Below, one piece after another: positions 6,503 through 61,821 of a stretch of 64,000 nucleotides of DNA. The notes below the pieces were generated by a model, which ran no database searches, was not told the origin of the DNA, and saw nothing but the letters and a program-made list of their open reading frames with translations. The stretch is from Octopus vulgaris. Lineage: Eukaryota. The stretch covers positions 94,550,001-94,614,000 of the forward strand of contig OX597817.1 in NCBI GenBank assembly GCA_951406725.2, written 5' to 3'. The position numbers were made by a program, and so were the translations under genes. Position 1 is the first letter of the stretch. Each line of letters begins with the position of its first letter.

Positions 6503-6504
<2 letters not shown>

Positions 6505-7168
6505 ATTAAAATCTTAGGGTAGCAAGAATGTTCATCGAAAAATTCTTAGTTACCAGTGGTCTAGCGAGAAAGAAAAAATTAGTCAATAGACTATATATTA
6601 TTCAGAGAAGAATACAGTGTACGTTCAAACACAAAAGAGATACTTTCGGAATTGCAACAATTGGTGGCTTGGAGTTTTAACTGCTCTTTCTAGCGAGTCA
6701 GATATCCTATTTTTCAGGTATCTATTTTGTGTTCGAACGTACACTGTATTCTTCTCTGAATAATATATAGTCTATTGACTATTTTTTTCTTTCTCGCTAG
6801 ACCACTGGTAACTAAGAATTTTTCGATGAATATTCTTGTTACCCTAAGATTTTAATTAATGATAAGATGTTTTTTGGCTAATTCTGGAAGAAAATCGGCA
6901 ATTTATAATTAGTGCTGGTTGAGTTCTGCTTCTACGCGGTAAATTCGAAAAATTAGAACCTATAGTCACGTGGCAGGTTATTTATCGCTTCGTGCCTATA
7001 TGTTCAGTCCTGGTAAGCTACTGAAGAAGCAGCGTCAGATATAGACTGAAATTATTTTATTTCAGTCTGTATTTAAGTCTGCAGAAACCTTGCAGGATCT
7101 AGGATTAAGGTAAAAGTTTTTATTTTCCAATCACTTTCGGAATTACAACAATTGGTGGCTCGGAGTTT

Positions 7169-7173
<5 letters not shown>
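6503..7173 (+). mobile_element. Retrozyme-like non-coding element (copy A)
   Basis: actttcggaatt(g/a)caacaattggtggc recurs at about 6642 and 7133 (unit ~490 nt). 6503-6641 is an inverted copy of about 6718-6858. Flanked by (TA)n. Confidence 0.7.
7018..7102 (+). ncRNA. Degenerate hammerhead motif
   Basis: cta-CTGAAGA-(long hairpin gcag..agactgaaat/atttcagtct..ctgc)-GAAA-ccttgcagg-ATC-tag. Stem III is imperfect. Confidence 0.55.
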
Positions 7174-9590: not shown

Positions 9591-9604
9591 TATATATATA
9601 TATT

Positions 9605-9646
<42 letters not shown>

Positions 9647-9647
9647 T

Positions 9648-10252
9648 TTCAACAATATTAAGGAATGGCCTTGATAGGCCATTCGACCCACTAGAAAGAG
9701 CAGCTAAACTCAAACCGCTAAATAGTTGTAATTCAGAAACCAAAGGAAAATAAAAACATTTACCCTTATCATCTTTGGACTATGCATAGTTTCGACATAC
9801 ATATTGTGAAACCGATTTAATTAAATTAAATTAAATTTATTTGCCACTGGCTTGTCTCATCAGCAAGGAAGCCAGGGAAATATATATCCACGAGACAACA
9901 GCATCGACGCCTCGAGAATATATATTCTAAATTTTCAAAATCTACCGTCACCGCGCCAACTTCTCGGCAGCAAATATAAACTGCTGATTTAATTTCGGAA
10001 TTAGCCAAAAAATCATTAATTAATCAATATCAGGGTAGCAAAAAATTCAAGAGAAATTATTTCGCTACCAGCGGTCCAGTGAGAAAGAAAAAGTAGTCAA
10101 CAGACTATATAATATACATTCAACAATATTAAGGAATGGCCTTGATAGGCCATTCGACCCACTAGAAAGAGCAGCTAAACTCAAACCACTAAATAGTTGT
10201 AATTCAGAAATCAAAGGAAAACAAAAACATTTACCCTTATCATCTTTGGACT
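9648..10252 (-). mobile_element. Retrozyme-like non-coding element (copy B), 471-nt unit in partial tandem
   Basis: 9648-9781 is repeated at 10119-10252. Shares sequence blocks with 6503-7173 and 32379-32848. Confidence 0.75.
9773..9868 (-). ncRNA. Type I hammerhead ribozyme motif
   Basis: ccTTG-CTGATGA-GACA...(AT-rich insert)...TGTC-GAA-ACTATGCATAGT-C-CAAag, with a 12-nt palindromic stem III and GUC triplet. Confidence 0.8.
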
Positions 10253-15036: not shown

Positions 15037-15071
15037 ATATCGACCGGTTTCGCTATCGCTATTCATGATAT
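15037..15071 (-). ncRNA. Minimal hammerhead motif with A3-U8 variant core
   Basis: ATATC-ATGAATA-GC gata GC-GAA-ACCGGT-C-GATAT, in an inverted pLTR segment (about 14920-15072) abutting PLE coding sequence. Confidence 0.65.
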
Positions 15072-15072
15072 T

Positions 15073-15664
15073 CAACACACAACCCCAGAAACAGTGAGGC
15101 ATTCAACACTATTGTGCAAACTGTCCCTTTACTAACTAGAGATCCAAAAATGAACGACATCCTGAAAACACACAAACTCATCAAATGCAAAGAACAAGAC
15201 AAATCGCTAAAGAGACTACTAACAAATGCGAAGCTTTATAAAACAACCACGAAACCAATGGTTGAAAAATGTGGACGCCCAAACTGTGGAACCTGCCCCA
15301 ACCTACTTGAAGGCTCGCATTTCCTTCTCAAACAAGGACAGAGGTTCACAAAACTAGTTTCACCTGTGCCTCTGAGAACCTAATTTATGTAATAACCTGC
15401 TCGGGTTGCGGTCATCAGTACATTGGACAAACGAGTATGACCTTGAGAAAGAGAATCACTCTACATAAGGAGCAAATCCGTTTCCCGCAATACAGACAAA
15501 TTCCTCTCAGTGAACACATAGAAAAATGTGCAGGTAACATCAAACCAAATGTCACAGTCTTCCCTTTCTACCAGTGCAAAGACGCAATCTCTCAACTAGA
15601 ACGTTTAAATAAAGAAACTTTTTTCATTGAAAAATACAAAACAAATCTTAATATGCACGCATAA
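15073..15664 (+). pseudogene. Penelope-like element C-terminus: Cys-rich linker plus GIY-YIG endonuclease (frameshifted)
   Basis: KCGRPNCGTC; TCASENLIYVITCSGCGHQYIGQTSMTLRKRITLH; SEHIEKC; RLNKETFFIEKYKTNLN. Confidence 0.85.
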
Positions 15665-20279: not shown

Positions 20280-20879
20280 CTATTTATTTCTATTAGTTTA
20301 TTTATCTGTGTATTTATTATGTTTTCAGGATCCTCTATTGTCATATGTTGTGGTGTGTGTTAGTGCTCCATTCTAGTTTTCTATTCAGGCTAGGTTTATT
20401 TTCTATTATGTGTGTAGCTTCTGTAATTTGTCTAATTGTTGCATCTGATCTATGTGTGGATAATATTTTAATTTCTATGTTATTGATTGATCCCCCGTGT
20501 TCTTGTTCGGCATGTTGGTACAGAATCGATGTGCTTTTATCTTCCTTGAGTTGTCTCCAATGCCCATTTACCCGCTCTCCTATGCTTCTTGCCGTTTCCC
20601 CTACGTATGTTGTTGTCTTGTTACTGCATCGTCCCTCTATACATCTTATACTATAGACTACATTTCTGGCTTTACAGTTTGTGGGCTAAATCTACATACA
20701 GTACAGTACTTATCCGTACAGGGGGTTCTACTAAAAGGATAGGTTCTACCAATTATAGATTTGATAGGGTTGCCTGGCTTTTCAACAACCTTAATTCTTA
20801 GCTTAATTTTGTCTGAATGAAGGATTTGGGTTTTATTATTCACAATTTCTAGCCAGAGTTCGGTGTCTAGTACTATGCC

Positions 20880-21790
20880 AAACCAATGGCCTCAAAATAC
20901 TTGACCACCGGAACTCAGCCATTGCGGACAATGCCAAATTCAATATCTTGATGGCAGACCTCGTCAGAATAATGAGAAACGTGTCACGCATGTGCGAGCC
21001 TACAGAGTTAAAGAGACACATACAATATTTCATTCACCGCATTCAGTTCTCAGGTTACAGCCATAAAGAAAGGATCAGAGTATACAAAGGAGCCATTAAG
21101 AAATTTGATAATATATTATGTAATGATAGGAATGGGATTTGCCCACTCTATAGGAACAAGTCATGGAACACTATAGAAAGGACAAAAAAGAAAATAGGGA
21201 AGGCCAACTCTTGGTATGATAGCCATAAATACCAGAGTGTCATGTTCGTTGACACCACCCCTGGAGGTGAACTGGCGTACCGCTTTAGAAGGACCCTAGA
21301 CAAAATTAAGCTAAGAATTGAGGTTGTTGAATAGTCAGGCAACCCTATCAAATCTATAATTGTTGGAACCTATCCTTTTAGTAGAACCCCCTGTACGGAT
21401 AAGTACTGTACTGTATGTAGATTTAGCCCACAAACTGTAAAGCCAGAAATGTAGTCTATAGTATAAGATGTATAGAGGGACGATGCAGTAACAAGACAAC
21501 GACATACGTAGGGGAAACGGCAAGAAGCATAGGAGAGCGGGTAAATGGGCATTAGAGACAACTCAAGGAAGGTAAAAGCACATCGATTCTGTACCAACAT
21601 GTCGAACAGGAACACGGGGGATCAATCAATAACATAGAAATTAAAATATTATCCACATATAGATCAGATGCAACAATGAGACAAATTACAGAAGCTACAC
21701 ACATAATAGAAAATAAACCTAGCCTGAATAGAAAACTAGAATGGAGCACCAACACACACCACAACATATGACAATAGAGGATCCTGAAAA
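20880..21790 (+). pseudogene. PLE RT C-terminus plus Zn-finger linker plus GIY-YIG endonuclease
   Basis: LVRIMRN..QFSGYS..VMFVDTTPGGELA..PCTDKYCTVC; then in a shifted frame NCKARNVVYSIRC..TYVGETARSIGER..RQITEATHI..LNRKLEW. Confidence 0.8.
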
Positions 21791-30975: not shown

Positions 30976-32378
30976 AATATAGATATCTTAAACAAATATG
31001 AGCCAAGAGAGATGACTCAGAAGGATACTTAGCTTGTATATAAACAGCATATTCAAATATATCAAATACTATACAATATAAATTCTTGTTACATTTTAAT
31101 TATCCCTGCCTCAAGTACATGTGTCATGATTATCAAATAGCAAGACCAGCTCCGTATGAGAAAGAGAGATAATCTCCAGAATCAAGGCTTATTGTCAGAG
31201 ATAAGAGAACAGTAGTTGATATGTGTTTCTGCCTCAATAGGCGTTATTAGCACGACAATTATTTTTATCTCCTGCAACCAAATGACAAAGTCATAGACCA
31301 AAAGAGTAGAACAGATTTATAACCCAGATAATTTGTTTAAATTAAGTAATTATGAGGTGAGAGAAATAATTATTTTTGCTTATACAAACACACACACATT
31401 CGCTAAAACTTCCAGAGACACGCGCATGACAAGATAAACAGAATTTGCAGATTCATCTATTGTGTAACTAAATAAGTATATGCATGAATGCTAAAGTATG
31501 TGGATGTAAATACATTTGCTTATGTATGTTTTTATAAATGTGAGGGGAGTGTATGAATATGTACATTTATATAATGTATATATAACGGCGTGTGTATACA
31601 CATATACATATGTGTGTGTGTGCGTCTATGTGTAGATGTATGTGTACGTAAATTTAGACATAATTGACTAAATGCTACTATTTCTCTACATATAAGAAAT
31701 TACATAATACTGTTATGAAATGACGCGTTTTGTTCTTTTTGAAAGCAATTTCGAAACATTCGTAAATACAATGCGTAAATATGGACGGAAACACATGCAC
31801 ATACAACCTCATGCGCACGACTTATGTACTGTCTGATTGTTAATAACTGTACAATAGACATTGATACTCGTACATAGGCATATTAATGAATACAAATCAC
31901 ACCCACATACACACACATATATATATATATATATTAATACATATATATGTACATTTGTGAACAGATACACAAATATATAGGCATACATCTATGTATTTTC
32001 ATTAAACACCATTTAACAAAAACAAGGCGATATAATGGATTACTGGACAATAAAATCACAGGCTAATGACATAACTTGTAATACAAAAGTTTTATGTGTG
32101 CACGTGTGTATGTTTGAGTACATATGTGAATACACATATATACGTGTGCGTATATATTCTTTTGTTCTTTTAATTGTTTCAGTCATTTGACTGTGGCCAT
32201 TCTGGAGCACTGCCTTTTAGTCGAAGTCTAAAGTCTTTATAAGTCTGGTGCTTACTCTATCGGTCTCTTCTGCCGAACCGCTAAGTTACGGGGACGTAAA
32301 CACACCAACATCAGTTGTCAATTGATGGGGAGTGAGGACAAACACAGACACAAGCACACACATAAATAAATATATACT

Positions 32379-32848
32379 CTCAGAATTACAACTATTAGTG
32401 GTTTGGAGTTTAGCTGCTCTTTCTAGTGAGTCGGATGTTCTATTATAGCCATCCCTTATATGTTTGAATGTATATTATATAGTCTATTGACTATTTTTTT
32501 TCTTTCTCACTTGACCGCTGGTAGCGGAGAATTTTTCTAAAATTTTTTGCTACCCTAAAATTTATTAATTAATGATTTTTTTGGCTAATTTTGAAATTAA
32601 ATCGGCAGTTCATTTACTGCTGAGTAAACCGCGTGAATGCGGTGGATTTTGAAAATTTATAGCATATAGACTCGAGGCATGCTCGTTATCGCCTTGGCTT
32701 TTCTGATGATGAGTGCAACGCCAGTGGTAAATAAATTTTATTTTATTTTATTTATTTACATAAGATTGCCGAAACTATGCATAGTCCAGAAAGGAAAGGG
32801 TAAACGTTTTTATTTCTCTTTCCATTTCAGAATTACAACTATTATTAA
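32379..32848 (+). mobile_element. Retrozyme-like non-coding element (copy C), ~448-nt unit
   Basis: tcagaattacaactatta occurs at both ends (32380 and 32828). Hammerhead motif at 32699-32793: TTTCTG-aTGATGA..GAA-ACTATGCATAGT-C-CAGAAA (C3A). Confidence 0.7.
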
Positions 32849-33008: not shown

Positions 33009-35037
33009 TTTTTCAAGATATTGCCATAAAAGCATTACACAGAGGGAGAAGCTTGCGGGCTGGACAAAGACATTGATTAGATGAGTGATGAAAAGGATGG
33101 CATTAATGGGGGAAGACAAAAGAGCCCACAAATCTTGCTTCTCTAAAACATTGCTCTTTTTTCGTTTTTTGAAAAACAAAAAACACAAATGAGGTAATGA
33201 ACTTCTAACAGTAACATTAGATTTCATAATATTAACATAAACATTAAATTGAGGCGCTAAGCCCCTTATCAATCATCCCCGATTAAATCTCTTGCTTCCT
33301 GCAGGCAATCACGCAGCAGCAACTATGGGACCCAGAAGAGATAATTGTACTCTTCCTTAGAAAAGGAACCGATTATCTTATAAAATTTAATTTCTTCTAT
33401 GACCTCGCAGCCACCTGCGGAGGCCAGTACGGATTATCCATGCAGGTCGGGACCACCAGTTCCCGACCTTCAAAACTATCCACAAAGTTCTCTACGGTCC
33501 CTTCCTTGAGATAGAAGACCACATATTCTTCATTATTTTCACTGGGAGTGACGACAGCCTCCTCCGCCAGTGGCACAATTCCCACCGACGAAGTTTCGAG
33601 ACATGCCGGCAGAGCATTGCAAACCGCCAGCACCCTCACATTCTTTTTTTTCTTCTTTTTTATCTTTGGCACGGGAGGGGTTGGCTCCTTCGCCTGCACC
33701 GAAGGAACATCGCCACCTCCCGCAACTCCCGGATCCATTGTTGCTCCCCTTCTTCCTTTTTCTCCCCTTTTTTCCGGGGGAGATCTCTCCCTCATCACCT
33801 ACTTCCTTCTCTCCTTCCAGAGGAGGATGGGAGCTCTTCTACTCTGATCCGGGGGCAGTTCTTTTTAATGTGGCCAGGCTCCAGGCACCGATGACAACTG
33901 GGTGGGTGGGGGCGACCCTCAAAAATCACCAGGGACCTGCACCCGGCCATTTTCAAAAAATCTGGAAAAACCAGATTGGTTGATTGGAGCCACAGGGTCA
34001 GAACAACCCAATCAGCCGCAGGAAAATTTTTCACATTAAGGAGCTTGGCTCTGCTACCGCCCAGAGCCCGGCGGATAGTCTTCTCTATCCACTCGGGTTT
34101 TATTCTGGGTGGCAACCCGCAGACCCAAACTCTTATCAACCTCTTCCCACAATACGTGGGAAGAAACAAAATTTCTTTGCCCTCTAAGAGCTGGCTCGCA
34201 AATTTGACCCCACTGAAAATGAATTTAATAGTTGGCAGATACTCTGCCAACTCCTTTTCTGTCACAATCTTTTCAAATAGGGCGATGGTGTCGAGCGACC
34301 CTCTCTTCAAGGTCTTTCAACCACTGTTTAGGTGGTATCATTTCCCACTCCAAAACATTGTCTTTTTTCATTGCTATGTTTTTTTGTAATAAAAGTTTGA
34401 AAATAGTTCAAAATAAAACTAAAAAAAAGAAAGAAGAAATAAATCAAAAGAAAGTCAAAATAAAATGGAAGGAAGAAAAAGAAAACAATTCACGAAAAAA
34501 GAAAGTCACAAAAAAGTTAGAAGGAAAAAAAACAGTCACCAGTTCAAAAACACAGTAAGCAAAAAAAATCCAGGAACGCCACAACTGGAACACGACTTCC
34601 ACAAAAATTGGTAAACAAGTTGTTCAATCTTCCGAGGTGAGACACTCCCCAAAACAACAATTCTCGCAATAATTTTAACAAATAACTATTCACTAAAAGT
34701 GAACAAATTTTTGGGAGGCGCGATACGCCCCCAAACAACAATTCTCACAATTAGGTGAAAAAAACTATTCACTTAACGTGAACAAATTTTGCCCTACTGC
34801 AGGCAGACTAGATTTCAGAATCCAGTGAGGACTACTTGCTTGTACAAAAATAATTACCGCAAACAACAAACCCCCACTGGACCCCAAAAAAAAACAAAAG
34901 TCCTACCTTACAATTGAGCTCCTTCTTTCATCAATTTTTCACCAGCTTCTTTCAGTGATACGCACAACACTGACAACAACGCATGCGCACACTGACAACA
35001 ACGCATGCTCACACTGACAACAACTCATGCGCAGTGT
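33009..35037 (-). mobile_element. ORF1-only (half-L1/HAL1-like) Tx1/L1-type element with TSD
   Basis: 14-bp TSD gaagcaagcttctt at 32995-33008 and 35038-35051, short A tail, and 5' tandem 22-mers (cactgacaacaacgcatg). Frameshifted ORF1 at about 33300-34371 with zinc knuckle CHRCLEPGHIKKNC. No RT or endonuclease. Confidence 0.75.
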
Positions 35038-41399: not shown

Positions 41400-42505
41400 T
41401 TTTTTATTTATTACCCATACGGGCTGACAAAGGGGGATACACATAACATTGGGGACATAGAACAAATTAACAAAAAATAACAGAAAAATAAAATTAAAAC
41501 GTATGATATGATGGGAAAATGAAGATGAGAAATGGAAGTGATGTTACTTGCCCAACCAACTAACATCACTTACTTGCCTTTTTTCCTGTTTTCCATTATA
41601 TCTAGTCCATATCGTTTTTTGAGTGTCTCATAGCCTATCGTTTTAGGTAACTTATCCAGGTTATAATTCACCTTCTATACCTCATAGCCGTCATTATTTC
41701 TTTTAATTTCGTTTTTATGTTTTTCCGTTATCAAAGCACATGTATGTTCACCTTGTCATTTGCGTTAACATAGACTAAATTTTTCCCATCCTACTACTGT
41801 CTCTAGCAGTTCATCTTCTACCTCCTCGTAAAGAATACACGCATAACACTCAGTGGGAAGGGAAGCTTGTAAATTATTGTGTGTATTGTCACTTCTTTTT
41901 TGTTTCCATGCTGGGGGGGAGTGGGTAGGTTTAGTGTCTGCGGGGAGAGGGTGGGACGAAGAGAGTGTGGATGGGCATTGGGTGGGTTGGGGTTCCGCAT
42001 GTGATAGGTTTAACTTCTTTCTTTTTCTTTTCCCGATGGTTTCCCACTCTTTTTCTTCTGTTGCTTTTTCTGCCTCTACCGGTATTATCAAATCATTCTT
42101 TGGTCTTTCCTGTTGTTTCTCTTGTAGAAACTCCTGCGGCCGCTGTTCTTCCGTTTCTTTGATCGGTGGAGGGCTTTTCGCTCTTATGTGGCCCTTCAGG
42201 CCACATTTAAAACAGCGAGGGATTCTGCCCTCCACCTACACTCTCAGACTTATGTCACCTACCGTTACCGTCTCTGCCAAACCCTCCAGCGCTTCCGCCT
42301 CAGCTTGAATTATCATCTCCAACGATTTACCCTTCCACGTCCCGTCTTCAGTTGCCGTGGCTTGGAGAACAGACACCTTTTCCTCACTTCCAAGGAGAAC
42401 AGCTGCCGCGACCGAAGCCGCTTCCATATCAGGCGGAATTCCTTCTACCATGATCCTGGATGTCCTCCTTCCAAGATATATGGGTAAAAGGACCATATGC
42501 ACACA
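41400..42505 (-). mobile_element. 5'-truncated ORF1-only Tx1/L1-type element
   Basis: LLPIYLGRRTSRIMVEGIPP and EGRIPRCFKCGLKGHIRAKS are homologous to the 33009-35037 ORF1. Runs directly into a 3' UTR and A-rich tail. Confidence 0.7.
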
Positions 42506-42814
42506 TCGCTTGACAACCGATGTGTGTATGTTTAAGTCCGCGTAACTTAGCAGTTCGGCAAAATATCCCGATAAAATAAGTACTAGACTTACAAAAAATA
42601 AGTCGATTTATTCGACTAAAACCCTTTAAGGTGGTGCTACAGCATGGCCACAGTCAGATGACCGAGACAAGTAATAGAATAAAAGAATAAGGCTGTGGCT
42701 AGCCCGAGGTTATATAGTATAAGACATTTGACAAAGGTGCCACGCAGTGGATTGAACCACATACTACGACGTAAGCAAGTTCTTAACTGCATTACATAGC
42801 CATGTGTTTGTATG

Positions 42815-43777: not shown

Positions 43778-46700
43778 TATTTCATAAAAATCTGCCATGC
43801 AGGCATTACATAGAGGGGACAAAAGGGGACAGACAAACAAAAGAGTGAAGAAGTTTTGTCGATTAAAAGTTCTGTTTTAAATGAACGGTGAAATGTGATT
43901 AAATATTGCGATTACAATAAAAATTTAAAATCTGATGATTTCACATTTCCACATGCAATGTATCTTCTGAAGGAAAGGCACCCGACCACCAAGGTAGAAC
44001 CATTGCTTTTCTTCCGGAGTTCCACTTACCTGGTGCCACTCACTCTCAGCTTTCTTGCCACAAGCTTCCATCTTTTATCGAATCTTGCTTGTGACAGGTA
44101 CTTCTTCTCCAGCCTGATGTTACTGCTGAGGTGGTAACTAAAAAAGTTGACTAACCCTTGGCCAGATACAAAGGTACCCGTCGCTATTCCTTTCACACGC
44201 GTCTTCTATAATGTTTCTTTCAGTATGGTTACTACGTAGAAAAAGCAAGCCTTCCTCTCCTTGTTAAGGGAAGGAGGCGGCACAATCTCCACGATAGACT
44301 CAGCGATAGGTGTACTTTTCCCATCGATGACAACAGTTGTTCTGCGAAAGCTATCAGTCCCGTTAATTCCGGACACTCCACAAATGCGCGCAAGACGGTT
44401 TCTCTGTCTTGTTAGCACCTCACACATGGCGAGACGGCACTTCTGTGCCTTGACAGTTTATCGCGAACAGATAACGCCGCACGAAAGCACTGCCAAGCCA
44501 GGGATTTCTGGTAATTATCCAGATACCCCGGCCCGAAAGCTCTCCTGAACAGGTTGATCAACTGATTTTTATTGTAGCCCAGGGTCTCCCCCAAGGCGTC
44601 TTCTGCTATAATCTCCACTAACCCGCTATAAAAATCCGCGGTGGAACTCCTGCTGCCGGCATTGCCCGCCCGAGAGAGCAACTGAAGTGCCTGACGGCAC
44701 TCCAATTGCCAGTCACCCGGTCTAGGTCTCTGCTTTATCCATGTACCAATGTCCGTTAAGGACGTTGACTGCGGAAGATAGAACCAGACGTGAAGTGACC
44801 ACACCTGCTCTCCATCCAGGTGAAGCCAGAGGTGCCTCAACCGTAATGCGAATTTTCGCATCTTCAGCTAAGACATCGCTAACCCACCCTTTAGCGGTTT
44901 CTGGCAGCAGACAGAGTGCTTTACAAATGGCTTTCTTCCCTTCCACAAAAAGCGGAAAAGGATTCTCTCCAACTTGCTCAACCACAAATCGGGGCGAGGT
45001 ACCACGGTCAGACAGTAGGTGATTACTGATGCTATACACATCTGCACCACCTCCACCCTCCCTAGCAAGGATAATGCCCGCCCAGACTAGGTCTGGGTTA
45101 GAGCAGTCACCTTCCTGGTCATATCACTCCAATTTTTCTCTATCTGGCGTTCTGGACTAATCCAGACTCCGAGCAGCTTAACAGGACCTTCTGTCCAACG
45201 TCCCACGATGTTATTGGACGCCATCGTCTTGTCCCTCCAGGTGCCGAGTTGCAAACCGACCGACTTGTCCTTGTTAACATTTGCTTCAGCCACCGCCTCG
45301 TAACTTTTGATGGCCTTTTCCACCACTGGAAGCTGGCCCTCATCCACCACGATGATAGAGATATCATCCGCATACGCCGTAGCTCCTCTTCCACACCATA
45401 GATCATGCGGCGCTCCCCCTAGTGCCTCCAACGTCCTCAGCAATGGCTCAAAAACCAATACATACAAAAGCGGAGAGTGTTCAATCCTGAATGGCTTCGA
45501 AAAGAGACCATTCACTTTCACGACGGACTCGATGTCGCTGTACAACGCAGCAATCTAACCGCGGAAGGTTGGACTCAAGCCAGCCTTCTCGAGGAGAAGT
45601 ACCGATGATTGACCTTATCAAATGATTTAAACTGGTTTAAATTTACCAGTGCTTCCCCCTCCCGGCACCAGAAAGTTTCCTCACCCTCTCTAACGAGTAG
45701 CGTATAATGTCGTGGATCGACCTGCCAGGGATAGCACACCTTTGCGCTTCCCCTACAAGTCTGTCCACGACCTAGGCCAACCTTTTCGCTAGCATCTTGC
45801 CCAAAATCTTTAACTCTGTGTTCAACTGAGTATGGGCCTGAAATTTCCAATTTCGACCCCCTTGCTCGGGTCCTTCCTGATCAACGTCACCACCCCTCGG
45901 CTCGCAGACTTGGGAATTCTCCCATTCTGCTGCTAATTGGCGTAGGCGATGGTCAGTAGGTGTCCGAACAAGTCTGGCATAGTTTTATAAAATTCATAGG
46001 GTAGACCATCGAAACCCGGCGACTTCTCCCCGGGGCATTCACCTAGTACCTCGATCACCTCCTCGGCTGTGATTGGCCCTTCACAGTACTCAGCCTCTCG
46101 TGCCAACAGACACGGGCCGCCACACAGGGAGTCCCTAAGGGTCTCACCATGATCCAGCGCCCCGCCCCTCCCGAACAACTCGGCGAAGTGCTTGTAAAGT
46201 GCCTCACGCATCTCGTCCTGTCCCTTGACCGAACTCCCATTGTCATCAACAAGAGACCTTATTGTGGCATCATTGTCACGCTGGGTTTCTACTGTACGGG
46301 CCCATCCGGCAACATTAATTCCCTCACAACTCAATGTGCGTACTTTAGTCCGAACTCTGCACCCCTCATGTTTGGCTTTGAGGTGACGGTCCAAGGCCGT
46401 TCTCGCTGCCAGAATGTAGGATGCAGAGCCCAACCTCAACGTCTCCTCTAATTCCTTAACTAGCTGCCCTTCTATTCTAGCCTTATCTAGTCTTATCCGG
46501 TGGCTAAACCTAACAGACTTGAAATGAATGGCTCTCTTGAGGGCGAACCACCACCGGTTATTAACCACAGCGCCGGGTAATGCCCTCCTTAATCCGGCTA
46601 CGGTATGCCTCGCCGGATCCTCTTTTAACTGTTCTATCTATGTTCAGCCTACACTTAACCAATCTATGGTCAGTGTAGGACACCTGAACAAGCTGTGGAC

Positions 46701-47040
46701 AACTAAAGCTATCCTTATCTCTAGCTCTTATCATTATCCTGTCTAAGTAAGACTTGTGCCTTCCGTCGCCATTAATCCAGGTCCACTCTAGGACGTTCGG
46801 ATGGTCAAGCCTGTAACGATCTGCTAGCTGAAAGCGCTTAAGCAGATCTACGAGGCGTGAGTTCGCTTTCCTACCAGTCGAGCCAAAGCTATCGATGCGT
46901 GCATCAACGATAGCATTAAAGTCTCCTAACACCACTAATGTCTTCGACGTCACGAGAAATTTCTCTAGGCGCCGATAAAAATCAGTTTGCAATCCTCTAA
47001 GCACAGGGTGCATAGATCCCGATCAACCAAGCAAAAGGGC
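43778..47040 (-). pseudogene. Tx1/L1-clade LINE ORF2 (APE endonuclease plus RT), decayed
   Basis: LGDFNAI, SYLDRIM, YTDHRLV (APE); KSPGFDGLPYEFYK, KSFDKVNH, SPLLYVL, AYADDI (RT). The 3' end is joined to a SINE at 43636-43777. Confidence 0.9.
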
Positions 47041-54193: not shown

Positions 54194-54565
54194 AGGCGCA
54201 GGAGTGGCTGTGTGGTAAGTAGCTTGTTTACCAACTTCATGGTTCCGGGTTCAGTCCTACTGCGTGGCACCTCGGGCCGACCAAAGCCTTGTGAGTGGAT
54301 TTGGTAGACTGAAACTGAAAGAAGCCTGTCGTATATATGTATATATATATATGTAGGTCCCGGGTTGATTCGGGGTTAACCACAGTAAATAAGGTACTCA
54401 ATACATAGCAGAGTAAAATTAATTTATTATATAGAAGGAGCTTCTACAGGACTAGAACTGTTTCATTCAAGAGAAATCTTCAGGAAGCTAGTTAACTAGC
54501 TTCCTGAAGATTTCTCTTGAATGAAACAGTTCTAGTCCTGTAAAGCTCCTTCTATATAATAAATG

Positions 54566-56185: not shown

Positions 56186-56443
56186 ATCCACAAATATATA
56201 TTTGTACATATACATATATATATTTGTACATATACATATATTTATTATATATATATATATATATATATATAATAAATATTAGGGAATGAATCCAAAATTA
56301 CAGGGAAAAATCAGATTTAGGGTTAAATCCAATTTTATAGTAAAATATTATATAATATAATTCGAGATAAAACCACTATTTTAAAACCAAACAAGGAAAG
56401 ACTTAATCAATACATAAAATTTTAATATAAATTAAATAAACCG

Positions 56444-56487
56444 CCACTACAAATGTTTCATGTCTGCTACCGACAATCTTCAGGTGG
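56444..56487 (-). ncRNA. Hammerhead motif in downstream pLTR
   Basis: CCAC-CTGAAGA-tTGTC ggtagca GACAt-GAA-ACA tt TGT-A-GTGG, on the same strand as the RT ORF. Confidence 0.75.
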
Positions 56488-57471
56488 ATTTTCGATCTAA
56501 AAATAGCAATATTTTAAAATATAATTTAAAATAATTTAAAATAATAAAACAATAAAATTATCAATGAAAGAATGTAAAAAAATAAAAATATAATCTATAT
56601 ATAATCTATATATAATCAATATATAATCTAAAATAATCTAAAATAAACCCTATAAACAATTGAATATAAAAACCTATTATAAAAGTTCTCATATTTAAAA
56701 ATGTACAAAAACCAAAAAACAACAAGCAAAAAACAAAAACCAAAACCTAAAAACAAAAAACAAAAAACAAAAATAAACTATATATACACACACATGCTCA
56801 TACACTCAACACATTACTTATTCATACTTCCTCACACACACATACAACACTCAATTCATAAACAATATACATATACCCGCTCACACATACATATACATAC
56901 ACATACATACAGAACACGATATATACCAATATATAAACACCCACACCTATACAGATAAATAAATTACGCAAACAATCACACACACACACACACATTTTCA
57001 CACATACATAAACACTCAAAAGAAAACCGAACAATTCTTAGCACGTGGATATCAAACATTTAAAAAAAATTATGAATGGAAATGAAATCCATACATACAA
57101 GTATAAATATAACTATACAAACCCTAACACAATACACACAAATACACACACATATATACACACACCCACAAACATAACCATATACACACTCACACATACA
57201 TATACATACGTACAAGTCCCGATACAAACAAACTTTAATAAAACGACCATGAAAAACGAAAACTCATATATATTAATATATATATAAAAGAGTGTGTACA
57301 CGCAGACGGGTGCAATCACACGCACATTCAAAACTTACATATATATAAGTGCATAAATAATCACACCCAAATACATAGCACTCATACACTCCCACATCTA
57401 CACTTACACTTGTACACTCTCACACATACATACACACCCATACCTACATACAAAAATTCTTATTAAAATAA

Positions 57472-58153
57472 TCATGATAAATAAAATCCATACATACAAG
57501 TATAAATATAAAGATACAACCCATTCATATGTTGTGCGATTCTTAATTTTATTTTAGAGGAAGTAGACCCTATATAAACCGCTTTTGGGTAATTATTCTT
57601 CTTAAAGTTATTATCATGTAATGTAACTATACATTTATACACTACATCTTTAATATCACATTTATTATTTAATTTACATTTAGATTTATCTCTACAAGTA
57701 CAATTAATATATGTCTTATCCTTATTATTATTAACAAATAATTTATTTTTATAAAAATTATTCAGTTTAAATTTATTAAATGAAGAAATAATGTTACCTA
57801 CATTATTAGTGGTGGAATAACCTACTCCAAAATTATCACTAGAGAAAATATTTTTATATTTACGATTATCTCTAATAAATAGTTCTATAATATCTAAAAT
57901 CTCTTTGATAATATTCGTTTTTACCTGATCACCATAAGGAACTATTAACCAAATTTTATTCTTATTCACCTTATTATAATTGTCAGTATTATAATTATTA
58001 AATTTAGAATTCTTCATATTATTAAAATTATTATCAGAATTATATCTATATACAGCATTTAAGGAATTATTAATGTTATTAATTTTATCCATATTATTAT
58101 TATTATTATTATTCAATTTATTTTTATTTTTATTTTTATTATTCTTATTATTC

Positions 58154-58203
<50 letters not shown>

Positions 58204-59807
58204 TTTATTTTCATTTTTATTTTTATTTTTATTATTTTTATTATTATTTTTATTTTTAATTTTATAATTTCTAATATTTATACCACTAATACCAACAAAA
58301 TTATAATTATTATTATAATTATCTCGAAAATTATTTAAATCTATATCATCAATATTATAAAATTTAATATTCCTATTATAACCTGCCCCTCTAAGGGCCT
58401 CATTATAATAAGTGGCATGTCTATTAAAAATCTCTATATCATAAGAGAGTAATGAAATACGTTTACTTATATTATTAATCAACGAATTTTTAATAGAATT
58501 TGGGTGATTACTATTAACATTTATATACCTAAGGTTCTCATTAATTTTATGATATGGTTGTGTTTTACCTGTAATTAGATTAAAATTAACATCTAGATAA
58601 TTAACATTATAATTCTCCTTATATATAGTAATACTTAAACCATATCTTTTAAAGAAACTATATAGTTTTTTCTTATATACTTCTAGATTCCTTTTAGTAC
58701 AATTCTTTGTAATTAGTAGAAGATCATCTCTATATAAACCACCCTCTATCTTAAGATTTTCTAATTGGAGTTCAGATAAAAGATAAATACCTACTAAATC
58801 AGTAGCTTGTGCAGAATCGGGTGCTCCCATAGGTATATCAAAACAATCTCTAGTATCATTCCTAGCCCATAATTTATTTTTATATTTAATGAGCGATTTC
58901 CTAGCCATTTTAATTACATTAACTTCTTCACGTGACATTCCCACTTTATTCATTGCGAAAATAAGTGCTTTATTAAACACAATTTCATTAATAGAAGAAT
59001 AATAATTATCTATATCTATTTGAATAAATTTAAAACGATTTTTATCTTTAATATTATTAAACCATCTCAATGTATTGTTATTACTAAACCATAATTTTAA
59101 ATAATTAAGTTTATTTAATTTATTGATATATTTATCTAAAATAAATTTACTTAATTTACCTAAGTCAGATTTACATGGGCAAATTAATCTAACTTTAGGG
59201 TCTGAATAAAAATTATCTTTATGGTCTTTAAGAGTAATTCTGGGGTTCAAAGGTACATATGGTTCAGTTTTATTATCCAATTCATATTTTAACATTACTA
59301 ATTTAGAGGCCTTATTAATATTATAAAGTATATCATCTGGAACAATTTTATATTTTTTAATTATTTCTTTCCCTAAAAGTTTATCATATAAATTAACATC
59401 TAATTTATATAAATTCCTAGTTTTATCAGATTGTACTATAATACCATCCATATTTCTCATATCTTTAATTTTAATTGCTAGGTTTCTTAAATATTCATTA
59501 TTTCTATTTGGGTATTTATAGAATTCAATATTTTTACTATCTTCCATATATTATCTTCTAGTAATTGTAATTCTTTATTAAATGGAGGTTCCTTTCTAGA
59601 TTTAAATTTAGAGGTAAAATTATCATTCCTACTATCATTATCATTAAATAAATAAAAATTATAGTAATAAGCTTTCCATTTAATTCTAGAAATAAAATCT
59701 TTAACATTATTAATAAGTTTCAAAATAAATTCCTTTCTAGAAGGTATAGGAATATCTTTCAAAGATGAATCCCAAAACAGTGGTTCTATCTTACCTGTAA
59801 ATTCCAT
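57472..59807 (-). CDS. PLE polyprotein: reverse transcriptase plus partial GIY-YIG (one frameshift near 59531-59535)
   Basis: SLKDIPIPS..RIKWKA; SDKTRNLY; KVRLICPCKSDLG; IDIDNYYSSI; FDIPMGAPDS; LYRDDLL; NYLDVNF; SNHP; CTCRDKSKC; VVYKC..VYIGST. Confidence 0.85.
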
Positions 59808-60037
59808 AATTACGAAATTGAGGTATTACACTCAATATACAAAATTATCAATATATTAAATAATAATAAATATTAGGGAATGAATCCAAAATTACAGGGA
59901 AAAATCAGATTTAGGGTTAAATCCAATTTTATAGTAAAATATTATATAATATAATTCGAGACAAAACCACTATTTTAAAACCAAACAAGGAAAGACTTAA
60001 TCAATACATAAAATTTTAATATAAATTAAATAAACCG

Positions 60038-60081
60038 CCACTACAAATGTTTCATGTCTGCTACCGACAATCTTCAGGTGG
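60038..60081 (-). ncRNA. Hammerhead motif in upstream pLTR
   Basis: Identical to 56444-56487. Confidence 0.75.
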
Positions 60082-60577
60082 ATTTTCGATCTAAAAATAG
60101 CAATATTTTAAAATATAATTTAAAATAATTTAAAATAATAAAACAATAAAATTATCAATGAAAGAGTGTAAAAAAATAAAAATATAATCTATATATAATC
60201 TATATATAATCAATATATAATCTAAAATAATCTAAAATAAACCCTATAAACAATTGAATATAAAAACCTATTATAAAAGTTCTCATATTTAAAAATGTAC
60301 AAAAACCAAAAAACAACAAGCAAAAAACAAAAACCAAAACCTAAAAACAAAAATCAAAGAACAAAAAACAAAAAATAAACTATATATACACACACATGCT
60401 CATACACTCAACACATTACTTATTCATACTTCCTCACACACACATACAACACTCAATTCATAAACAATATACATATACCCGCTCACACATACATATACAT
60501 ACACATACATACAGAACACGATATATACCAATATATAAACACCCACACCCATACAGATAAATAAATTACGCAAACAA

Positions 60578-60609
<32 letters not shown>

Positions 60610-60698
60610 TTTCACACATACATAACCACTCAAAAGAAAACCGAACAATTCTTAGCACGTGGATATCAAACGTGTTGACCGCACGTGGAGAAATGATA

Positions 60699-61434
60699 AG
60701 TAAGGAAAATTTTTTTTAAAAATGCAGAATGCTCAAATGAAAGAAAATTTTAATAAAATGAGAAATTGATAAAATATATAAATATATATTTATTCAACCG
60801 GTTTTCGTCATTGTATGACTTGTCAAGAATATTTATGTTTTAAAAAGTTTTTTTTTAATTAGAAAGGGGAAAAAAAGAAAATTGCATTGTTTTTTGCAAA
60901 AGAATAATGATAAAAATGCACAAAAATAAAAAAATAAAAAAATAAGTACTCCGATACATTGTGAGTTCGTTGTGTATCTTGAGTTTTATGATTGTTCACG
61001 AAAAAATTACCTTGAGGTATTAAGATCCAAAGGGATTAAGAGCATGTGTTGTGTGGTTTAATTCAGCTGAATTAAACCACACAACACATGCTCTTAATCC
61101 CTTTGGATCTTAATACCTCAAGGTAATTTTTCGTGAACAATCATAAAACTCAAGATACACAACGAACTCACAATGTATCGGAGTACTTATTTTTTTATTT
61201 TTTTATTTTTGTGCATTTTTATCATTATTCTTTTGCAAAAAACAATGCAATTTTCTTTTTTTCCCCTTTCTAATTTTTAAAAAAACTTTTTAAAACATAA
61301 ATATTCTTGACAAGTCATACAATGACGAAAACCGGTTGAATAAATATATATTTATATATTTTATCAATTTCTCATTTTATTAAAATTTTCTTTCATTTGA
61401 GCATTCTGCATTTTTAAAAAAAATTTTCCTTACT
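60699..61434. repeat. ~735-bp spacerless palindrome (fold-back pLTR-like element)
   Basis: Centre attcag|ctgaat at 61046/61047, with near-identical arms. Carries a hammerhead-like motif in each arm. Confidence 0.85.
61302..61342 (+). ncRNA. Hammerhead-like motif with U3-A8 core and one extra A (mirror copy at 60791-60831, minus strand)
   Basis: TATTC-TTGACAA-GTCAT aca ATGAC-GAAa-ACCGGT-T-GAATA. Confidence 0.55.
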
Positions 61435-61821
61435 ATATATATATATACTTAGTATTAATAAAATAGATGGAAGGAGAAAAGATTTTATTGGGTACGACAC
61501 ATCTTTCGACTCGTTCTGGCTTTCTTCGGGTACATCAATAAAAAGTTTTACGAGAGATTTTCTGATTCGGTTTTACGTACCGCTATATGTCCATCAACTT
61601 CAAGAATAAGTATTAAAAAAAAAAATGAGAAAAACTGAAACGGAAAAACTTTAAATATGAACGTGAAAATTATACATTCTAGTTTAGAGAAAATGACGTA
61701 AAGACCCTTCACTACTGTAACTGTAAAGAGAAAGAAAAGAATGTAGAAGTTGAAAGAAAGATAATACTTAGACGAAAATCTTTTTGTGTTCGTGTTTAGA
61801 CGCACGTATACATACACAGAT

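Follow-up and report, generated by a model that had tools for sequence, protein, structure and literature searches.

How does a non-coding element bearing a hammerhead ribozyme motif come to be copied through an octopus genome? The question is raised by positions 9,646–10,252 of the window, the 64,000-nucleotide stretch of Octopus vulgaris DNA analyzed here. The original prediction viewed this locus as one of three head-to-tail copies of a candidate retrozyme, which is a non-autonomous hammerhead element, moved by the reverse transcriptase (RT) of a Penelope-like element (PLE). The best explanation, to which we assign a probability of about 0.8, is that the focal locus is a 5′-truncated copy of a dispersed non-coding hammerhead family, inserted in trans by a PLE RT-endonuclease that starts at two fixed sites on the RNA.

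The focal copy and its hammerhead

The window contains three related non-coding copies, as had been claimed, and they are ~71–81% identical across their aligned parts. Their features, with the strand following the coordinates, are:

9,646..10,252, minus: focal copy, a single 5′-truncated arm (locus L001)
9,772..9,874, minus: focal type I hammerhead, with core, stems I–III, and predicted pseudoknot strand
10,244..10,252, minus: half-site AGTC↓CAAAG at the focal 5′ end, an incomplete ribozyme without a core
9,646..9,660, minus: focal 3′ end, located at fixed site A and abutting (TA)n
10,106..10,120, minus: internal copy of site A (monomer ~129–143), putative first RT start site
10,015..10,025, minus: internal copy of site B (monomer ~224–234), putative second RT start site
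10,035..10,166, minus: conserved multibranch and hairpin structure around A and B, putative RT-binding domain
9,591..9,645, no strand: (TA)n target at the focal 3′ end
6,503..6,643, minus: copy 1 (locus L061), inverted arm that terminates at site B in (TA)n
6,642..7,173, plus: copy 1, direct arm, one unit and ~40 nt; core CTGAAGA at 7,021–7,027, predicted cut after 7,099
32,377..32,844, plus: copy 3, one unit and ~22 nt; core ATGATGA at 32,706–32,712, cut site after 32,786

The focal copy is 607 nt long and consists of 4 nt, one 471-nt unit, and a further 132 nt. The proposed layout of a unit plus a partial second unit holds for this copy (471 + 136 nt) and for copy 3. Copy 1, however, is a 141-nt inverted arm joined to a 532-nt direct arm and not a simple tandem. 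Due to this head-to-head junction, the region 6,503–6,858 self-aligns as a 356-bp imperfect palindrome. The lack of a credible open reading frame (ORF) is borne out: three monomers read as trimers contain no ATG ORF longer than 31 aa, with the longest spanning 22–31 aa. The proposed location in or next to TA repeats is likewise found, with TA or TATG repeats flanking the focal copy.

The focal hammerhead is a complete type I motif. Stem I pairs TCCTTG (9,869–9,864) with CAAAGA (9,777–9,772), the core CTGATGA occupies 9,863–9,857, and GAAA with the palindromic stem III, GAAACTATGCATAGTC, lies at 9,793–9,778. The predicted cut falls at 9,778/9,777. Stem II is 63 nt long with a GCCA bulge at 9,851–9,848, and TGGC at 9,874–9,871 is the predicted pseudoknot strand. 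A C·A mismatch in stem I is private to the focal copy, where TCCTTG replaces the TCTTTG of the family. One hammerhead per copy was expected, and the other two copies fit this less well. Stem III of copy 1 has a C·A mismatch, and the core of copy 3 in register is ATGATGA (C3A) once its stem I (TTTCTG/CAGAAA) is respected; the copy 3 ribozyme is likely inactive.

The motif GTC↓CAAAG is present at both 9,778 and 10,249 of the focal copy, and the spacing is exactly 471, in agreement with the reported distance of one unit between cleavage sites. However, the site at 10,249 consists of AGTC↓CAAAG only and follows (ATAC)n; the core, stem II, and the 5′ strand of stem III are all missing, and it is not a predicted cleavage site. 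The focal copy is therefore unable to release a unit-length RNA, and the idea that it is cut twice to form a 471-nt circle has to be abandoned. As it holds one ribozyme only, it is likely a dead end.

Across the family, stem II measures 52–74 nt and comprises a short helix at its base, then a bulge, and then an AU-rich helix of considerable length. Among 24 diverse copies, 90.4% of cells are paired and 16 of 29 pairs show two-sided change, counts that kinship among copies inflates by the method's own warning. None of 500 shuffles scored as high, and slid controls are 34–44% paired. Two-sided change is found in 5 of 6 pairs of stem I and 3 of 4 pairs of basal stem II, and the two strands of stem I switch together (TCTTTG/CAAAGA, TCTCTG/CAGAGA, TTCCTG/CAGGAA, CCTA/TAGG). 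The covariation indicates that the ribozyme is under structural selection, and the hammerhead of the family is likely self-cutting. A conserved TGGC 5′ of stem I is complementary to the conserved GCCA of the stem II bulge, and 87% of their cells pair. The predicted stem I/II pseudoknot that they would form is unproven because it has zero two-sided changes. Minimum-energy folds of the focal copy, which are pseudoknot-free, favor the TGGC/GCCA pairing and lack the active hammerhead fold. No hammerhead family is among the matches listed by an Rfam scan (150 of 162, E ≤ 1), which is consistent with the oversize stem II.

A dispersed family with two 3′ end sites

The search covered a genome of 2.8 Gb in 227 contigs and gave 2,484 candidate places for the focal unit (40 scored) and 1,903 for copy 1. 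Exact matches number 744 for a 16-mer covering GAAA, stem III, and GTC (1 for its reversed control) and 1,548 for a second, 19-mer motif (0 for its reversed control), both being lower bounds given that only ~36–59% of arms match the 19-mer exactly (15/42, 17/30, and 20/34 arms in three samples). This excess over the reversed controls means that the family is not a product of chance. The predicted family is thus dispersed genome-wide, and its stems covary across subfamilies. Ten other complete monomers are 470–493 nt long and 64–96% identical to the focal unit. The GC content is 34–36% in the five monomers tested, and there is no LTR.

Insertions were compared in two motif-picked samples and one pooled set. 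Sample 1 takes in 90 loci around the first 100 listed matches of a motif at monomer positions 76–94, chosen to avoid length bias, and yields 90 insertions. Sample 2 takes in all 28 matches of a motif near B (26 distinct), tallied by hand. The pooled set, L001–180, includes loci picked by similarity. Arms were mapped by BLAST and by profile HMM with concordant results.

The 3′ ends cluster at two sites of the monomer, A (~115–147) and B (~218–247), which are ~97 nt apart. In sample 1, (TA)4 lies within 25 nt of 98 of 131 3′ ends. The permuted ends of the original prediction are therefore a property of 5′ ends only, as the 3′ ends are fixed family-wide. The two sites are surrounded by a second conserved structure, in which 7 of 35 pairs show two-sided change. 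Single arms (n = 49 in sample 1) end at A in 35 cases, at B in 9, and elsewhere in 5. Two much older, diverged members, at L242 1–176 and L244 3,041–3,266, both end at B in TA repeats, and the family is therefore deeper than the subfamilies sampled.

The 5′ ends bear on the nature of the RNA template. Of 79 arms at risk, 25 stop in positions 1–30, compared with 4 of 54 over the 30 nt just upstream of the cut (p = 0.001), and 54 of 96 arms read through past the cut site. The pile-up is broad, covering positions 1–45, and not sharp at +1, so a stall at RNA structure could also explain it. When folded as circles, the monomers are predicted to exceed their shuffled versions in stability (z −2.5 to −8.0, with 25 shuffles each). 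An RNA circle made by the family is slightly more likely than not. Contigs assembled from four runs (three presumed RNA, one unlabelled), which are blind to level, ends, and circles, show similar uneven coverage of the element. Two intact cores on one arm are found at only two distinct loci, L003 and L065, among L001–180 and L314–341.

A PLE could also work without a circle, which would be neither made nor needed if the templates were linear read-through transcripts of multimeric genomic copies. This is the most serious of the alternatives, though we consider it doubtful. Multimers do exist, at 1,204 nt (L164) and 1,477 nt (L065), and unprocessed RNA serves as the main substrate of a PLE protein in vitro (Frangieh et al. 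2024, PMC11167929). Yet several subfamilies, 64–96% identical to the focal unit, persist, whereas linear masters would erode each round given how short most arms are (median 205 nt; 9 of 134 longer than one unit). Structural selection on the ribozyme also argues against a purely linear life cycle, as do the circles that are the main form of coral, mussel, and axolotl retrozymes (Cervera and de la Peña 2020, PMC7229834). A ceiling on arm length near 772 nt was considered and dropped once the two longest arms, those at L164 and L065, appeared.

The arms of head-to-head insertions are joined according to a simple rule. Of 41 such insertions in sample 1, 29 are A/B, 9 are B/other, 2 are A/other, 1 is other/other, and none is A/A or B/B; removal of two apparent duplicates leaves A/B at 28 of 39. 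Sample 2 contains 14 A/B pairs, 2 B/other, and 2 complex insertions, the rest being single, and again has no A/A or B/B. All 42 classifiable pairs in the two motif-picked samples hence combine one A with one B. The pooled set, by BLAST, has 48 A/B, 1 A/A, and 1 B/B among 72 pairs, and exceptions to the rule therefore exist. Inner arm junctions mostly show an overlap or gap of a few bases. Target duplications are unreadable at most sites, which lie within (TA)n, and only abutting repeats of 12–15 nt were counted. Direct repeats of 12–15 bp abut both arms at four loci, three of them distinct (L086, L157/L166, L161, and L167), and a duplication scan detects a repeat of at least 7 nt at 19 of 159 insertions, against a control rate of 4.7%.

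Paired arms also tend to stop or read through together. In the 26 pairs of sample 1 with both arms reaching position 90, both stop in 14 and both read through in 7, while in 5 only the A arm reads through and in 0 only the B arm (2 × 2 table, 14, 0 / 5, 7; p = 0.0012). The pairs of sample 2 are divided into 6 that both stop, 2 that both read through, 1 with only A, and 1 with only B reading through (p = 0.18 alone), and the samples combined give 20, 1 / 6, 9 (p = 0.0004). The arms agree by position and not by length, given that B arms must travel ~97 nt further. This agreement is compatible with both arms being copied from one RNA molecule and sharing its 5′ end, and a single template is probably primed twice.

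The pairs might instead stem from two RNAs, successive insertions, or DNA fold-back repair. Such separate events are unlikely, although the arms overlap in sequence, which on one RNA would need strand displacement, and some complex insertions have three arms. Separate events predict A/A and B/B pairs, of which there are 0 among the 42 classifiable pairs of the motif-picked samples. They are also at odds with the single target duplication that brackets both arms and with paired 5′ ends that agree by position. Double priming on one RNA resembles the twin priming of L1, in which a single RNA is primed by two target 3′-OH ends and the resulting inversion is enclosed by one target duplication. L1 has a variable second site and arms with hardly any overlap, whereas both sites of the octopus family are fixed and its arms overlap.

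Penelope-like elements and the proposed mechanism

Several PLE families with long open frames reside in the same genome. One is represented in the window:

56,280..60,660, minus: Hydra-like PLE with two pLTRs and an RT frame of 692 aa that is cut short within the endonuclease; (TA)n at the 3′ end

Its pLTR carries a short-stem type I hammerhead, with the core at about 60,068 and 56,484. Pfam does not recognize the 692-aa ORF, and its Hydra-like assignment rests on DKT, RWK-like, and CxCX5C motifs, as given for the Hydra clade by Craig et al. 2021 (PMC8557442). Many intact relatives of 820–860 aa are found in the genome. A different family, termed E, has an intact 778-aa ORF, copies that are ~99% alike, and no CxCX5C linker (L271–L313, for example L301 4,170–6,503, plus strand). 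A query with its endonuclease gives 17,509 candidate places in the genome, and the family is young and abundant. The 3′ ends of family E are fixed at two sites, which lie 150 nt from each other and in (TA)n, and its head-to-head insertions are A/B in 7 of 7 called (13 loci fetched, the rest uncalled). In its hammerhead, stem II is also long, at 56 nt, stem III is palindromic, and the core is a CCGA variant.

Given the two fixed 3′ ends, the head-to-head arms, the (TA)n targets, the 12–15-bp duplications, and the same rule in family E, the octopus retrozyme is probably mobilized by a PLE. The anatomy of the insertions supports the proposed source of RT well, whereas similarity to pLTRs is not significant in the families sampled. 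Compared with the pLTRs of four sampled PLE families, the retrozyme has a best nhmmer E of 0.12–0.31, with shuffle p of at least 0.13. Short words common to the retrozyme and either family E or the 3′ end of the Hydra-like element in the window (E 0.15) are lost on shuffling. With no significant pLTR similarity in the four sampled families, family E is a candidate partner by architecture only.

An autonomous PLE could in principle shed such copies as 3′-end remnants, or solo pLTRs. Cut site, A, B, spacer, and ribozyme are collinear with family E minus its ORF, and frog retrozymes are tied to pLTRs (Li, Clavereau and Pollet 2026, bioRxiv 10.64898/2026.07.22.740005). However, ~150 non-coding nt 3′ of B lead back to the ribozyme, and arms continue into an RT/GIY-YIG ORF in 0 of 180 loci by tblastn coordinates. 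PLE protein matches occur in 13 of the 180 loci, each at least 470 bp from the nearest arm. The four closest cases, read in sequence, are separate insertions, and in two of them TA runs and other repeats lie between arm and PLE. The other two are the retrozyme matches among 90 PLE loci, separate insertions that end at B in (TA)n. Remnants attached to an autonomous ORF, the refuting case posed with the original prediction, were thus looked for and not encountered in 180 loci. This origin appears largely refuted within the sample and is very improbable. A SINE-like passenger of a LINE is more improbable still: LINE remnants lie in the window and target duplications of 12–15 bp fit LINEs too, but there is no poly(A) or terminal tail, the 3′ ends fall at two internal sites, of which the inverted arm always takes the other one, and intact PLEs here behave alike.

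Other repeats populate the window. Two copies of another short head-to-head insertion, at ~15–215 and ~54,330–54,565, have a CTGAAGA...GAAA hammerhead-like core and belong to an unrelated family; one end is short and the other has a ~70-nt tail in TA repeats, the one-A-one-B pattern, and their perfect hairpins underlie spurious Rfam mir-3199 matches. Two further PLE families, both GIY-YIG and with Zn-finger-like linkers, have left remnants at 15,069–15,664 (plus), 20,341–20,685 (minus), and 20,807–21,334 (plus); in the first, the two 3′ ends lie ~55 nt from each other in TA repeats. A near-perfect ~750-bp palindrome (~60,700–61,450, centered at about 61,068) is situated directly upstream of the Hydra-like PLE. 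Broken LINE-like frames at 44,400–47,020, 33,795–34,316, and 41,765–42,607, all on the minus strand, contain endonuclease/RT-like and zinc-knuckle-like motifs by eye.

Mobilization by a PLE would proceed as follows. Rare loci with two intact ribozymes would be transcribed, and their transcripts would self-cleave into RNA of unit length. A host ligase would likely close some of this RNA into a circle, as has been demonstrated for other animal retrozymes. The PLE RT-endonuclease would bind the structured domain around A and B and make a staggered cut in AT-rich DNA. One target 3′-OH would then prime at A and the second at B, with a single RNA molecule as the likely template of both, and the two cDNAs would be joined via short microhomology. 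Where only one priming succeeds, a single arm would result, as at the focal locus. With a cleaved linear template, both arms would stop just 3′ of the cut site; with a circular or uncut template, arms would read through to give unit-plus-partial copies.

Relation to known elements

By most testable features of its sequence, the family is likely a non-LTR retrozyme. Like the metazoan non-LTR retrozymes described by Cervera and de la Peña 2020 (PMC7229834), it has a head-to-tail unit that is non-coding and low in GC, each junction carries one type I hammerhead, target duplications are large, the predicted circle is structured, and PLEs occur in the same genome. The unit is 470–490 nt here and ~170–400 nt for the RNAs of that study, and the octopus family also differs in its stem II of 52–74 nt with a predicted pseudoknot. 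Their copies form tandem arrays, whereas the octopus copies are mostly sub-unit in length, 5′-truncated, dispersed, and often inverted. Cleavage and circles are shown for those retrozymes and are putative in the octopus family. The same study reports non-LTR retrozymes in a mollusc, the mussel, and its main text mentions neither octopus nor cephalopods.

Li et al. 2026 regard non-LTR retrozymes as non-autonomous PLE derivatives, and the same mobilizer is concluded here. Their units span 51–972 bp, and some of their families are monomer-rich. Their case is built on co-occurrence and on homology to pLTRs in frogs, whereas the octopus offers insertion anatomy with no detectable pLTR homology. The survey, as presented in the preprint, includes 35 species and no mollusc. 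Most octopus copies fail its rule for an "active" element, namely two consecutive complete ribozymes. Of 9 predicted dimers of frog retrozymes, only 1 was seen to cleave, which counts against the best explanation.

The biochemistry and genomics of PLEs are compatible with this picture. In vitro, a PLE protein cuts and extends both strands, starting at two internal RNA sites that bound the tail, and a dimer is predicted (Frangieh et al. 2024). The same study counts against the best explanation on one point, as self-cleavage was dispensable for insertion in vitro. A tail at one end and an inverted copy are PLE traits, and Hydra-clade PLEs with hammerheads and (TA)n targets are present in Octopus bimaculoides (Craig et al. 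2021). The tail is ~97 nt here and 150 nt in family E, against 30–40 bp in the PLEs described in these two papers, and the octopus element is non-coding, unlike those PLEs. It also recalls non-autonomous Chlamys elements such as MRC1, which are non-coding PLE passengers with head-to-tail insertions (Craig et al. 2021). At the 3′ end, in contrast, MRC1-type elements are generally similar to their autonomous partner, and a canonical hammerhead is lacking in most Chlamys elements.

In the sources covered, a literature search found no described cephalopod retrozyme, no count of the A/B rule, and, for PLE anatomy, no argument for a single template; the first two might be recorded in subscription papers, supplements, Dfam, or Repbase. 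Elements of this kind have been described in many animals, and the animal group is likely new. Because retrozymes have so many hosts, one more host is minor. The family adds evidence at the level of insertions that retrozymes and PLEs are linked, a connection argued from co-occurrence and homology in the papers covered. Its countable rule, in which one end is A, the other is B, and the arms stop or read through together, bears on how PLEs make inverted and tailed insertions, a process termed "still undefined" by Craig et al. 2021. More tentatively, the family may be a circular-RNA parasite of Hydra-clade PLEs, and its insertions may record a general PLE mechanism of a dimer, one staggered cut, a single RNA, and two fixed sites. 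If so, dimer priming on one RNA would yield the tail and the inverted copy, and also the partial tandems where the template is circular. The 470-nt RNA with its long-stem, pseudoknotted hammerhead would then be a minimal substrate for reconstitution, and its presence in the same genome as an intact 778-aa candidate protein makes the mechanism directly testable.
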